Assembly (NCBI RefSeq): GCF_003334765.1
Contig: NZ_QOWT01000004.1
From: Escherichia coli
GTDB lineage: Bacteria; Pseudomonadota; Gammaproteobacteria; Enterobacterales; Enterobacteriaceae
Strand: one strand, 5' to 3'
Length of the DNA: 64,000 nucleotides
Shown here: in pieces, positions 12,965 through 29,650 of the stretch
Position numbering within the stretch: the stretch's first letter is position 1
Layout of the letters: each line of letters opens with the position of its first letter
Made by a program: the position numbers and the translations under genes
The notes under the pieces: generated by a model
Databases searched by the model: none
What the model was told of the DNA's origin: nothing
The model's input: the letters and a program-made list of their open reading frames with translations, nothing else

Positions 12965-13095
12965 GGAAGTGATAGGAAGTGACCAGATAATACATATATG
13001 TTCTGTACTCTCTTGCGCATTTTGATTGTTGACTGAGTAACCAGACAGTTGATGTGCACGATTTCCCCTCGCCCTAACAGACGTGGGCGGGGGCA

Positions 13096-13719
13096 CCCGG
13101 TGTGTGCAATATACGAAAAAAAAGCCCGTACTTTCGTACGAGCTCTTCTTTAAATATGGCGGTGAGGGGGGGATTGACTCGCTTCGCTCGCCCTGCGGGC
13201 AGCCCGCTCACTGCGTTCACGGTCTGTCCAACTGGCTGTCGCCAGTTGTCGAACCCCGGTCGGGGCTTCTCATCCCCCCGGTGTGTGCAATATACGAAAA
13301 AAAAGCCCGTACTTTCGTACGAGCTCTTCTTTAAATATGGCGGTGAGGGGGGGATTGACTCGCTTCGCTCGCCCTGCGGGCAGCCCGCTCACTGCGTTCA
13401 CGGTCTGTCCAACTGGCTGTCGCCAGTTGTCGAACCCCGGTCGGGGCTTCTCATCCCCCCGGTGTGTGCAATATACGAAAAAAAAGCCCGTACTTTCGTA
13501 CGAGCTCTTCTTTAAATATGGCGGTGAGGGGGGGATTGACTCGCTTCGCTCGCCCTGCGGGCAGCCCGCTCACTGCGTTCACGGTCTGTCCAACTGGCTG
13601 TCGCCAGTTGTCGAACCCCGGTCGGGGCTTCTCATCCCCCCGGTGTGTGCAATATACGAAAAAAAAGCCCGTACTTTCGTACGAGCTCTTCTTTAAATAT
13701 GGCGGTGAGGGGGGGATTC
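13096..13719. repeat. Tandem direct repeat array, ~3.4 copies of a 181-bp unit, each carrying the 3'-terminal ~19 nt of serX plus the serX terminator
   Basis: Identical units begin at 13101, 13282, 13463 and 13644 (period 181). Each contains tatggcggtgagggggggatt (the serX 3' end on the minus strand) and the hairpin gcccgtactttcgtacgagc with an A8 tract; the last copy merges into the authentic tRNA. The track shows the same ORF repeated at 181-bp spacing. Confidence 0.92.
13658..13688 (-). terminator. serX intrinsic terminator (proximal copy)
   Basis: On the minus strand: stem gagcucguac / guacgggcuc (one G-U pair) followed by U8, 12 nt after the tRNA 3' end. Identical copies occur in each upstream repeat unit. 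Confidence 0.7.
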
Positions 13720-13787
13720 GAACCCCCGATACGTTGCCGTATACACACTTTCCAGGCGTGCTCCTTCAGCCACTCGGACACCTCACC
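13700..13787 (-). tRNA. serX: tRNA-Ser (long variable arm, class II)
   Basis: Reverse complement reads GGTGAGGTGTCCGAGTGGCTGAAGGAGCACGCCTGGAAAGTGTGTATACGGCAACGTATCGGGGGTTCGAATCCCCCCCTCACCGCCA: 88 nt with D-loop, TPsiC arm GGTTCGAATCC and a CCA end. Anticodon assignment (GGA) is from memory. Confidence 0.9.
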
Positions 13788-18680: not shown

Positions 18681-19331
<651 letters not shown>

Positions 19332-20085
19332 GATGAAACCCCGCTTTTTTTATTGATCGCACACCTGACAGCTGCCTCTAAAATAGAAGCACCAGAAGTA
19401 CTGACAGATGTTGCACTGCTGTGTGTAGTAATAAATCAGCCCTAAATGGGTAAAATATAAAACTAATGGATTACATCTGATTTCAATCTAGCCATTACAA
19501 ATCTTAAATCAAGTGTTAAACATGTAACTAAATGTAACTCGTTATATTAAAATGTTAACCTTAAGGTTTTATTAAGTTTAGAAATGATAGAAAAGTTGTA
19601 CATTTGGTTTTTATTGCACAATTTTAAAAAATCATACAAATGGTGATAACTTACTAATAATGCATATAAAAAATATTTCGGTGTAGTCCTTTCGTCATGT
19701 AAAACGTTCTTGTTTTTTCTCCACACCTCCGTGGACAATTTTTTACTGCAAAAAGACGAGGTTTGTCACGGCTTGTGCGCAAGACATATCGCAGCAATCA
19801 GCGACGGGCAAGAAGAATGACTGTCTGGTGCTTTTTGATAGCGGAAAGCGGAGATTTAAAAGAAAACAAAATATTTTTTTGCGTAGATAACAGCGTATTT
19901 ACGTGGGTTTTAATACTTTGGTATGAACTAAAAAAGAAAAATACAACGCGCGGGTGAGTTATTAAAAATATTTCCGCAGACATACTTTCCATCGTAACGC
20001 AGCGTTAACAAAATACAGGTTGCGTTAACAACCAAGTTGAAATGATTTAATTTCTTAAATGTACGACCAGGTCCAGGGTGACAAC
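19332..20085. promoter_or_regulatory. csgD-csgB divergent intergenic regulatory region (754 bp, AT-rich)
   Basis: Unusually long, AT-rich, curvature-prone non-coding region between the divergent csgDEFG and csgBAC operons. Known from the literature as a binding hub (OmpR, CpxR, IHF, H-NS, RpoS-dependent promoters); individual sites were not mapped here. Confidence 0.8.
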
Positions 20086-20541
20086 ATGAAAAACAAATTG
20101 TTATTTATGATGTTAACAATACTGGGTGCGCCTGGGATTGCAGCCGCAGCAGGTTATGATTTAGCTAATTCAGAATATAACTTCGCGGTAAATGAATTGA
20201 GTAAGTCTTCATTTAATCAGGCAGCCATAATTGGTCAAGCTGGGACTAATAATAGTGCTCAGTTACGGCAGGGAGGCTCAAAACTTTTGGCGGTTGTTGC
20301 GCAAGAAGGTAGTAGCAACCGGGCAAAGATTGACCAGACAGGAGATTATAACCTTGCATATATTGATCAGGCGGGCAGTGCCAACGATGCCAGTATTTCG
20401 CAAGGTGCTTATGGTAATACTGCGATGATTATCCAGAAAGGTTCTGGTAATAAAGCAAATATTACACAGTATGGTACTCAAAAAACGGCAATTGTAGTGC
20501 AGAGACAGTCGCAAATGGCTATTCGCGTGACACAACGTTAA
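20086..20541 (+). CDS. csgB: Minor curlin / nucleator CsgB
   Basis: Start at the ATG at 20086 (MKNKLLFMML) gives 151 aa; signal peptide plus five imperfect ~22-aa Q/N/G-rich amyloid repeats. Confidence 0.93.
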   Translation: MKNKLLFMMLTILGAPGIAAAAGYDLANSEYNFAVNELSKSSFNQAAIIGQAGTNNSAQLRQGGSKLLAVVAQEGSSNRAKIDQTGDYNLAYIDQAGSANDASISQGAYGNTAMIIQKGSGNKANITQYGTQKTAIVVQRQSQMAIRVTQR

Positions 20542-29550: not shown

Positions 29551-29650
29551 TGCCTGATGCGCTACGCTTATCAGGCCTACATCGTTCCTGCAATTTATTG
29601 ATTTTGCAAGACTTTGTGGGTCGGATAAGGCGTTCACGCCGCATCCGGCA
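29551..29650. repeat. REP/BIME cluster in the opgH-yceK intergenic region
   Basis: Palindromic units tgcctgatgcgctacgcttatcaggcctac and gtcggataaggcgttcacgccgcatccggca. Confidence 0.7.

Follow-up and report, generated by a model that had tools for sequence, protein, structure and literature searches.

The genes csgD and csgB of Escherichia coli are divergently transcribed, from the minus and the plus strand, respectively, and the DNA between them is long enough to raise the question of what it contains: unrecognized small genes, control elements, or filler. We addressed this question in the window, a 64,000-nucleotide stretch of an E. coli genome, in which both the open reading frames (ORFs) and the RefSeq annotation place the gap. 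Its left edge is set by the ATG of csgD at position 19331 of the minus strand (coding sequence 18681–19331, 216 aa; WP_000481509.1 in FORC 064 and b1040 in MG1655). On the right lies csgB (20086–20541, plus strand, 151 aa), whose start, as annotated by RefSeq both in MG1655 and in FORC 064, where the region is 100% identical, is the ATG matching position 20086. An in-frame ATG at 20059 was considered as the csgB start and rejected, since it is conserved in Escherichia, Citrobacter, and Salmonella only, unlike the stretch CCAGGTCCAGGGTGACAAC immediately 5′ of 20086, which is near-invariant. With these two starts, the gap spans 19332–20085, or 754 bp. The locus is the known control region of the curli operons csgDEFG and csgBAC, and its presence between csgD and csgB is near-universal in the species (5330 of 5426 complete genomes), which confirms the identity of the locus. 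It is already published and well studied, so the observation made in the first-pass annotation, that of an exceptionally long AT-rich intergenic region, is correct but ordinary.

The claim that this is the largest non-coding region of the window is true, but by a narrow margin. When the FORC 064 annotation was transferred to the window and the gaps were ranked, the 754 bp came first and were followed by gaps of 735, 620, 586, and 572 bp. The 735-bp gap (12965–13699) adjoins a tRNA-Ser gene and is filled by three RtT-like repeats. The description of the region as AT-rich with many A/T tracts was borne out as well. Its GC content is 34.6% (AT 65.4%), against 49.6% for the whole window, and an AT content this high or higher is reached by only 1.7% of the window's 754-bp stretches; the most AT-rich stretch of this length lies upstream of pgaA. 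There are 25 A or T runs of 4 bases or longer, 12 of 5 or longer, and 7 of 6 or longer, which is 2–6 times the level in mononucleotide shuffles (11.5, 3.8, and 1.2 runs), and the observed counts were reached in none of 2000 shuffles. In addition, the AA/TT dinucleotides show a periodicity of 10.6 bp (P ~0.016).

These properties match the published picture of the K-12 locus, in which the region is 754 bp long, the 13th largest intergenic region of the genome, 65.5% AT, and curved, with no fewer than 12 proteins and 5 sRNAs binding to it (PMC5745457). Occupancy by OmpR, CpxR, IHF, H-NS, MlrA, RstA, RcdA, CRP, and others, as well as the pairing with sRNAs, is known from the literature (PMC5745457, PMC3535384, PMC13304067, PMC4152358, PMC6061853). 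The corresponding interval of MG1655 (1103197–1103950) is identical in length, flanking genes, and all the blocks mapped below, and differs from the window in a single base, at window position 19848, where the window has G and MG1655 has A. The G is common to the window and FORC 064, while A is found in every other E. coli sampled. Another unusually long stretch of divergent intergenic DNA that integrates many regulators in E. coli is nanC–fimB, which at 1455 bp tops the published table of intergenic lengths (PMC5745457). Like other long AT-rich regions bound by H-NS and IHF, it involves other loci and other factors, and the likeness is one of kind only.

Three short ORFs lie within the gap: ORF A (19547–19738, minus strand, 63 aa, TTG start), ORF B (19763–19957, plus strand, 64 aa, TTG start), and ORF C (19798–19992, minus strand, 64 aa, ATG start). 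They are present exactly where the first-pass annotation had placed them, and it had regarded all of them as chance ORFs in AT-rich DNA. Three ORFs of at least 60 aa are somewhat more than expected from dinucleotide shuffles (mean 0.6; P of three or more = 0.0165), an excess that is confined to the K-12-like allele. Automatic annotation has also entered ORFs A and C as “hypothetical protein” in some GenBank records, of E. coli and Shigella only, and ORF A is intact in 4 of the 9 E. coli alleles sampled. Taken by themselves, these three observations would favor the view that ORF A, B, or C is a real small protein restricted to K-12-like E. coli, that is, a young de novo gene.

The comparative data speak against it. 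Integrity within the species was assessed in the same 9 alleles, 7 of which are non-K-12. ORF A has premature stops in 5 of these 7. In ORF B, a C-to-A change at 19831 creates a TGA stop in all 7, and 5 of them are frameshifted by the loss of 1–2 bp from the T-run at 19874. ORF C is frameshifted in 5 of the 7, with the start codon lost in one strain and an in-frame stop in one. Beyond E. coli, no ORF is intact in more than one of 75 other Enterobacteriaceae species: ORF A is intact in none, the stretch aligned to ORF B in a single one, and ORF C is interrupted by a stop at codon 9 in E. albertii and Citrobacter. Substitutions are spread evenly over the three codon positions (41/52/44 in ORF A, 36/29/39 in ORF B, and 23/31/32 in ORF C), with no codon-position bias in any of the three (P 0.43–0.83), and the DNA underlying ORFs B and C, like much of that underlying ORF A, is spacer whose divergence equals the synonymous rate, as measured at fourfold sites.

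Other evidence is in agreement. The two ORFs with TTG starts, A and B, are preceded by no obvious Shine-Dalgarno (SD) sequence, none of the ORFs matches an NCBIfam family at E ≤ 1, and the exact sequence of ORF B is absent from a collection of 15 billion proteins. None of the 20 matches listed carries a RefSeq annotation under the region. Weaker in its bearing is the Ribo-RET table of Stringer et al., whose plus-strand part, obtained under growth conditions in which the curli genes are silent, contains no initiation peak in the interval. Conservation and codon-substitution analysis, which the first-pass annotation had proposed as the check, thus found frames that are not preserved and no purifying selection on any of the ORFs, the one result that it had said would speak for an unannotated small protein. 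In practice, a small protein here is already refuted by these comparisons, and we consider such a gene extremely improbable; the ORFs are best accounted for by chance, and the same comparisons allow those circulating in GenBank as hypothetical proteins to be set aside.

We compared 75 Enterobacteriaceae species in an alignment of 76 sequences. The intergenic length is 733–802 bp in 73 of the 75 species, and the GC content of the region is 0.32–0.43, against 0.42–0.51 in the flanks, across at least 20 genera. Conserved blocks coincide with published or expected sites, namely, the csgD leader, its −10 hexamer, the OmpR repeat, an MlrA-type palindrome, the CsgD box, and the likely csgB −10 hexamer, while identity in the central part is only 0.23–0.45. 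The csgD (agfD)–csgB region of Salmonella enterica has the same architecture and a near-equal length, with 760 bp in the locus of S. enterica subsp. diarizonae and 754–755 bp in published accounts (PMC13304067, among other sources). It shares with E. coli the −10, the OmpR D1 repeat, the MlrA palindrome, the CsgD box, and the csgB −10, but when the two are compared, substitutions in the central spacer have reached saturation (divergence 0.61–0.71), and the Salmonella region has none of the E. coli short ORFs.

On the csgD side is the hexamer TAGATT, preceded by GC, at 19485–19490 on the minus strand, which we take to be the csgD −10 from its position, which fits a 148-nt leader, and from established knowledge; the block that contains it, TTCAATCTAG, is identical in 69 of the 76 sequences. 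Upstream, at −112 to −146 (19591–19625), is the palindrome AAAAGTTGTACA-N11-TTGCACAATTTT, with AAAGTTGTAC identical in 64 of the 76 sequences and the distance from this block to the −10 fixed at 110 bp in 71 of them. It is a putative MlrA site; Ogasawara et al., in 2010, reportedly placed the MlrA site at −113 to −146. Between the −10 and the palindrome lies a direct repeat, GTTACATTTAGTTACATGTT (19519–19538, minus strand, −41 to −60), which was read from the sequence as the putative OmpR activating site D1, is conserved across genera, and is in keeping with a D1 site published at −51 (PMC13304067). Farther upstream is the block TCATACAAAT (19632–19641), identical in 54 of the 76 sequences, and next to it, at about 19645–19658, an IHF-like motif that is degenerate in E. 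coli. The perfect IHF consensus YAANNNNTTGATW occurs at the aligned position in 22 of the 76 species, which suggests where the IHF site probably lies.

The first-pass annotation had put forward scans for OmpR, CpxR, IHF, and RpoS-dependent promoter elements. Strict patterns for IHF, CpxR, and RcdA were uninformative in E. coli. The strict IHF consensus is nowhere matched within the region in E. coli, and the CpxR pattern GTAAA-N5-GTAAA, with up to two mismatches, is too degenerate, as it matches 4 times in the region and 85 times in the window, where 59 matches are expected. The OmpR repeat is unique in the window, but the pattern was partly derived from this same sequence, so its recovery is not an independent test. 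A generic sigma-70 scan returned two promoter-like sites, against 4.0 expected from shuffles; one of them is the OmpR repeat, and neither is a real promoter, so that the scan missed those that exist. No exact copy of the RcdA box TTGTNNACA occurs in the region, and its matches in the window are fewer than expected by chance. Terminator-like hairpins at 19720–19735 (plus strand) and 20018–20033 (minus strand) are not conserved outside Escherichia and were treated as chance.

The csgD transcript begins with a 5′ leader of ~148 nt (19332–19479, minus strand), whose start is known to within 1 nt and which is the target of the sRNAs OmrA/B, McaS, RprA, GcvB, and RydC (PMC4152358, PMC6061853). The −10 lies just upstream of it, and an Rfam match starts at 19478. 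This match, to the family RF02752 (“ES056 sRNA”), covers 19387–19478 on the minus strand, that is, the first 92 nt of the leader, and is full length (model positions 1–92 of 92), with 119.7 bits against a gathering score of 43. ES056 was described as a 92-nt transcript with a transcription start offset of +1, conserved in Escherichia, Shigella, and Citrobacter (PMC4676190, Table 3). As it begins at the csgD transcription start and ends in the loop region of the stem–loop SL1, we rejected it as an sRNA gene in its own right; the match is better interpreted as a fragment of the csgD leader and differs from the family description in being the 5′ end of the leader and no separate gene.

Two structures of the leader were compared with the alignment. 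SL1 (nucleotides −83 to −28; 19359–19414, minus strand), whose 5′ half is the OmrA/B site (PMC4152358), is supported by RNAalifold on 48 sequences, in which pairs of the apical stem keep pairing by two-sided changes in 10–21 sequences each. SL2 (nucleotides −10 to +16; 19316–19341, minus strand), which contains the SD and the AUG (PMC4152358), is also predicted by RNAalifold but is almost invariant, so covariation is uninformative there. The single-stranded stretches targeted by sRNAs are near-invariant, and the stretch ACACAGCAGTGCAACATCTGTCAGTACTTCTGG flanking SL1 is 88%–97% conserved. The view that the region is a binding hub and the source of a long csgD 5′ UTR targeted by several sRNAs thus agrees with previous work (PMC5745457, PMC4152358, PMC6061853, PMC3535384) and fits the Rfam match to the leader, the covariation of the stem–loop, and the conserved, rigidly spaced blocks.

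On the csgB side, the clearest element is the CsgD box CGGGTGAGTTA (19951–19961, plus strand). It fits the consensus CGGGKGAGNKA of the Salmonella CsgD literature, which matches nowhere else in the 64 kb of the window (0.21 matches expected), and it is near-invariant across genera. The conserved block AATACTTTGG (19912–19921), upstream of the csgB promoter, lies 39–40 bp from the box in all 76 sequences, and the distance from the box to 19992 is 41 bp in 74 of them. Downstream of the box by 19 bp is CATACT (19981–19986, plus strand), within a stretch in which at least 90% of the 76 sequences agree, and this position makes it the likely −10 of csgB. It is followed by the conserved GTAACGCAGCGTTAA (19994–20008, plus strand), which holds the 6-1-6 palindrome TAACGC-A-GCGTTA and resembles a CpxR site, with two mismatches to the CpxR pattern; a CpxR site on the csgB promoter has been mentioned (PMC13304067).

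What separates the two promoters is mostly neutral in sequence. The left spacer (19642–19749, 108 bp) diverges at or above the rate of fourfold sites, with 0.34–0.44 within Escherichia and 0.60–0.72 between genera, while its length is 107–110 bp in 73 of the 76 sequences. The right spacer (19773–19911) also diverges at about the fourfold-site rate, with a looser length: from the island described next to the block at 19912, it measures 140–156 bp in 74 of the 76 sequences. Between the spacers is a small island (19750–19772, about −271 to −293 of the csgD promoter and about 1103615–1103637 in MG1655) with the consensus (TTAA)GAAAA-N8–10-GTSAC, in E. coli AAAAA-N9-TGTCAC with the GTCAC at 19765–19769, whose divergence within Escherichia is 0.04–0.09, against 0.29–0.38 at fourfold sites. 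Of the 76 sequences, 58 carry GT[CG]AC at the position aligned with it, and the GTSAC lies ~288 bp upstream of the csgD start, positioned by the 108-bp spacer. By-eye comparison with consensus sequences gave no convincing match of the island to a CRP, Cra, PhoP, BasR, or RcsAB site. It may already sit under published footprints, either the initial footprint of RcdA or the distal OmpR sites D3–D6 of Salmonella. For Salmonella, a map of OmpR and IHF sites was reportedly published by Gerstel et al. in 2003. The RcdA footprint, at −192 to −308, includes the island (PMC3535384).

The central ~270 bp could be functionless filler, with a constant length that reflects a low indel rate alone, and we regard this as a serious possibility that nonetheless falls short of an even chance. 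In its favor are the neutral rate of sequence divergence, two Kosakonia species that retain the operons although ~125 bp of the central part are gone, and a 2025 preprint that found csgBA expression unchanged after deletion of rcdA and several other proposed binders. Against filler stands the contrast in length among segments: the csgB leader (39–113 bp), the csgD leader (147–172 bp), and the right spacer vary freely, whereas the left spacer does not, despite saturation of its sequence. Against it, too, is an alignment-free count, in which the GTSAC of the island is exactly 133–134 bp from a YCAYACAAA block in 42 of 49 species, with a background of 0.003 per bp. The region may be something other than a uniform binding hub: its upstream half may form an enhancer-like module, in which the separation between the island and the promoter-proximal IHF/MlrA/OmpR block is kept constant; we offer this tentatively, as an idea somewhat unlikely as it stands. 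If true, there would be a distal site, and selection would act on geometry and not on sequence, for example, on a loop, dependent on IHF or H-NS, by which a distal factor reaches the csgD promoter.

A different account would make both length and AT-richness historical accidents, left behind by horizontally acquired csg DNA silenced by H-NS. The csg genes and their flanks are indeed below the window average in GC, and H-NS binding across the region has been reported (PMC3535384, PMC13304067). However, the A/T runs exceed composition-matched shuffles and are helically phased, and the architecture persists though the central sequence is saturated. Because the same length and low GC are kept across at least 20 genera despite this saturation, both properties are maintained rather than inherited by inertia, and we consider an origin by accident very unlikely.

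We conclude that the region is almost certainly the non-coding divergent promoter and leader of csgDEFG and csgBAC, organized as a modular regulatory scaffold; none of the observations contradicts this reading. The anatomy, conservation, rigid spacing, RNA covariation, and non-coding status of the ORFs come from our observations, and the binders from the literature, whereas the csgB −10, the place of the IHF site, and what the spacer does are inferred. In such a scaffold, a stationary-phase promoter would drive csgD from the TAGATT at 19485–19490, with OmpR acting at the GTTACA repeat near −50, MlrA at the palindrome at −112 to −146, and an IHF-type bend site near −170. H-NS and other nucleoid proteins would coat the AT-rich DNA with its phased A-tracts. 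In the 148-nt leader, with three stem–loops, Hfq-dependent sRNAs would block translation or trigger cleavage by RNase E, and on the csgB side, CsgD would bind its box just upstream of the CATACT −10. The central ~270 bp, free of sequence information but for the one small island, would serve as a spacer or nucleoprotein platform.

Both CsgD, the master regulator of biofilms, and the curli fibers are under the control of this region, which is a textbook case of signal integration at one promoter; to that picture, the observation adds nothing. The distinction between blocks constrained in sequence and a spacer constrained in length but neutral in sequence, which places a distal island, offers a target for work on spacing and looping at csgD.

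The csgD-csgB gap occupies 19332-20085, 754 bp running from the start codon of a 216-aa minus-strand ORF (csgD, 18681-19331) to the plus-strand start of csgB at 20086. It is 100% identical to the interval in E. coli FORC 064, the strain closest to the window, and one base apart from that of K-12 MG1655 (19848, G in the window and A in MG1655), whose counterpart gap (1103197-1103950), also of 754 bp, is flanked by the annotated genes csgD (b1040) and csgB (b1041). A search of 5426 complete E. coli genomes found at least 80% of the interval in 5330, in nearly every case with an identity of ≥95%; 54 genomes had no match and ~42 only a partial one (e.g., NZ_CP145714.1, 8% coverage). Six matches were on records labelled plasmid, and at least one genome carries two copies. 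The G at 19848, within the neutral right spacer (19773-19911), occurs in the window and FORC 064 alone, with A in MG1655 and in 7/7 other sampled E. coli; the CsgD protein of the window is WP_000481509.1, as in FORC 064, and WP_000481500.1 in 7/7 other sampled strains. The 20 RefSeq records among the matches listed have no feature annotated beneath the interval. An ORF lister places the csgB start at an in-frame ATG at 20059, nine codons upstream, but this ATG is conserved in no genus other than Escherichia, Citrobacter, and Salmonella, which makes 20086 the preferable start.

The first-pass annotation had described the gap as highly AT-rich, full of A/T tracts, and the largest non-coding region in the window, and each of these statements held. 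Its GC content is 34.6%, against 49.6% for the whole window, and of all stretches of 754 bp in the window just 1.7% equal or exceed the gap in AT content. The extreme case (32.5% GC) lies outside the csg region, at ~10030-10783, covering the 5' end of dgcT and the dgcT-pgaA gap. Runs of A or T of at least 4, 5, and 6 bases number 25, 12, and 7, compared with 11.5, 3.8, and 1.2 in composition-matched shuffles, none of which (0/2000) reached the observed counts. This excess and a peak of AA/TT dinucleotides at a 10.6-bp period (P ~0.016) agree with the "strong inherent curvature" published for the region (PMC5745457). Gap sizes were obtained by transferring the annotation of FORC 064, which is possible because the two sequences are collinear, except that the window lacks two IS elements and has one additional 181-bp repeat. 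By this measure the size rank is true but narrowly, as the next gaps are of 735 (12965-13699), 620, 586, and 572 bp. The 735-bp gap, between ycdU and a tRNA gene, is not empty: beside tRNA-Ser(GGA) (13700-13787), a 181-bp unit is repeated 3.4 times in perfect tandem (13096-13718). Three of these units score as Rfam RtT RNA (46.3 bits, threshold 45), and FORC 064 carries one unit fewer. The absent elements are an IS3 copy at ~11641, between dgcT and an ACP S-malonyltransferase pseudogene adjoining ycdU, and an IS1 copy at ~61010, between rluC and rne; outside the IS differences identity is ≥99.8%. Elsewhere in the window, Rfam matches above threshold were found at 3259-3452, 29573-29615, 38744-38793, 60528-60864, and 62725-62893, the families being Ysr251 antisense RNA, ES036 (CssrF), PyrC leader, the rne 5' UTR element, and SraB.

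For the comparison across Enterobacteriaceae, csgD loci were taken from one genome per species, and the gap was extracted from 75 species of ~20 genera, from Escherichia through Buttiauxella and Kosakonia. Its median length was 760 bp, and 73 species fell within 733-802 bp. The two exceptions, Kosakonia pseudosacchari and K. quasisacchari (586-589 bp), lack ~125 bp of the central spacer together with part of the csgB leader, and their MlrA-type half-site has diverged. Its GC content was 0.32-0.43, against 0.42-0.51 in the flanking 6.6 kb. The conservation profile is strongly modular, with conserved blocks around a poorly conserved centre. On the csgD side, the blocks are the ribosome-binding site and AUG of csgD, a leader stretch at 19392-19421, TTCAATCTAG around the -10 hexamer (identical in 69/76 sequences, the window included), a GTTACA-N4-GTTACA repeat at -41 to -60 from the csgD promoter start, an MlrA-type palindrome AAAAGTTGTACA-N11-TTGCACAATTTT at -112 to -146, and TCATACAAAT at 19632-19641. 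On the far side of the centre come AATACTTTGG (19912-19921), the CsgD box CGGGTGAGTTA (19951-19961), which is the sole match to CGGGKGAGNKA in 64 kb, CATACT (19981-19986), the palindrome TAACGC-A-GCGTTA (19995-20007), and the csgB ribosome-binding site. From its position, CATACT would serve as the -10 of csgB, and the CsgD box would overlap the -35 region. Spacing within each promoter module is rigid: the csgD -10 lies 110 bp from the MlrA-type block in 71/76 sequences, the 19912 block 39-40 bp from the CsgD box in all 76, and the CsgD box 41 bp from 19992 in 74/76.

The leader also matches the Rfam family ES056 (19387-19478, minus strand, 119.7 bits), which might suggest a separate sRNA gene. 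This candidate was rejected, as the match begins where csgD transcription does and runs as far as the loop region of stem-loop SL1. Because the 92-nt transcript of the source paper has its first base at the mapped start site (PMC4676190), ES056 corresponds to the 5' part of the csgD leader, and it looks like a leader fragment (the first 92 nt) rather than a gene. In an alignment of 48 species, RNAalifold recovered SL1, whose apical stem pairs survive double changes in 10-21 sequences each, as well as SL2, which is invariant. Taken alone, the E. coli leader has only a modest folding advantage over shuffles (z = -1.9). A small 5' hairpin, visible in the alignment as ACCCA...GGGC versus CCTCC...GGAGG, has been published under the names "AUUUA hairpin" and stem-loop I (PMC6061853).

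The three short ORFs, A (19547-19738, minus strand), B (19763-19957, plus strand), and C (19798-19992, minus strand), are present exactly as first listed, and their dismissal as chance ORFs is well supported. In favor of coding, ORFs of at least 60 aa exceed the shuffle mean (three versus 0.6, P = 0.0165), and GenBank records of E. coli and Shigella carry ORFs A and C as "hypothetical protein". The slight excess arises because all three are open at once only in the K-12-like allele, and the GenBank entries, with varying starts and lengths and not kept by RefSeq, are typical of gene-caller false positives. These ORFs and three shorter ones are each intact in 0 or 1 of the 75 other species. Among seven E. 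coli alleles spread over the identity range, examined together with MG1655, ORF B acquires a TGA stop at codon 23 (19831 C>A) in 7/7 and loses 1-2 bp of the T-run at 19874 in 5/7; the same deletion shifts the frame of ORF C in 5/7, which also loses its ATG in one strain and gains a stop in another, and ORF A has premature stops in 5/7. No sign of purifying selection on these frames was seen. Substitutions are spread evenly over the three codon positions in 14 Escherichia sequences (P 0.43 to 0.83), and the spacer holding ORFs B, C, and much of A diverges from E. coli at the rate of the fourfold-degenerate sites of six csg genes, used as the neutral yardstick (0.28-0.34 versus 0.29-0.38 within Escherichia; 0.56-0.72 versus 0.48-0.61 between genera). 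Promoter and leader blocks mostly diverge 2 to 10 or more times slower. An NCBIfam search of the ORFs gave no family match, and a Ribo-RET table, from growth conditions non-inducing for curli, has no plus-strand initiation peak here among the rows listed.

The feature is already known, and its reading as a binding hub for regulators and the source of an sRNA-targeted leader is the standard one (PMC5745457, PMC4152358, PMC6061853, PMC3535384, PMC13304067). One paper gives the region 754 bp and 65.5% AT, ranks it 13th in length among the intergenic regions of K-12, and counts at least 12 proteins and 5 sRNAs that bind it; of 32 mapped sites, 26 are no more than 200 bp from the start of csgDEFG (PMC5745457). 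RcdA was placed at -192 to -308 and H-NS at -201 to +28 (PMC3535384), and in Salmonella OmpR D1 at -51 and H-NS at -69 to -339 (PMC13304067). The 148-nt leader contains SL1 (-83 to -28), SL2 (-10 to +16), and sRNA sites (PMC4152358), and has been modelled as three stem-loops with an A/U-rich platform for Hfq and RNase E (PMC6061853). [quoted passage not shown]

The poorly conserved centre is not uniform, as it contains a small conserved island (19750-19772, AAAAAGACGAGGTTTGTCACGG in E. coli; consensus (TTAA)GAAAA-N8-10-GTSAC) ~288 bp upstream of the csgD start. GT[CG]AC occupies the aligned position in 58/76 sequences, and divergence of the island within Escherichia is 0.04-0.09, versus 0.29-0.38 at fourfold sites. 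The 108 bp from TCATACAAAT to the island (19642-19749) diverge at or above the neutral rate, and yet their length is 107-110 bp in 73/76 sequences; in the same species the other segments are free in length (right spacer 140-156, csgD leader 147-172, csgB leader 39-113 bp). In an alignment-free count, GTSAC fell exactly 133-134 bp past YCAYACAAA (the TCATACAAAT block) in 42 of the 49 species having both motifs, versus a background density of 0.003 per bp. This spacer also holds a hairpin resembling a terminator (TCCACACCTCCGTGGA with a T-run after it; 19720-19745, plus strand), which is not conserved beyond Escherichia. Directly past TCATACAAAT is a putative IHF site (YAANNNNTTGATW), its motif perfect in 22/76 species and degenerate in Escherichia. 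The island falls within the reported initial footprint of RcdA (PMC3535384) and the Salmonella H-NS region (PMC13304067), and may match the distal OmpR sites described for Salmonella. We infer from these sequence comparisons that it is a candidate distal csgD promoter element, kept at a fixed register relative to the proximal complex; a loop shaped by IHF or H-NS is a plausible means. Selection would then act on the geometry of the spacer. This neutral spacer of constrained length, together with its distal island, is a modest lead and the sole element of the region that might be new.
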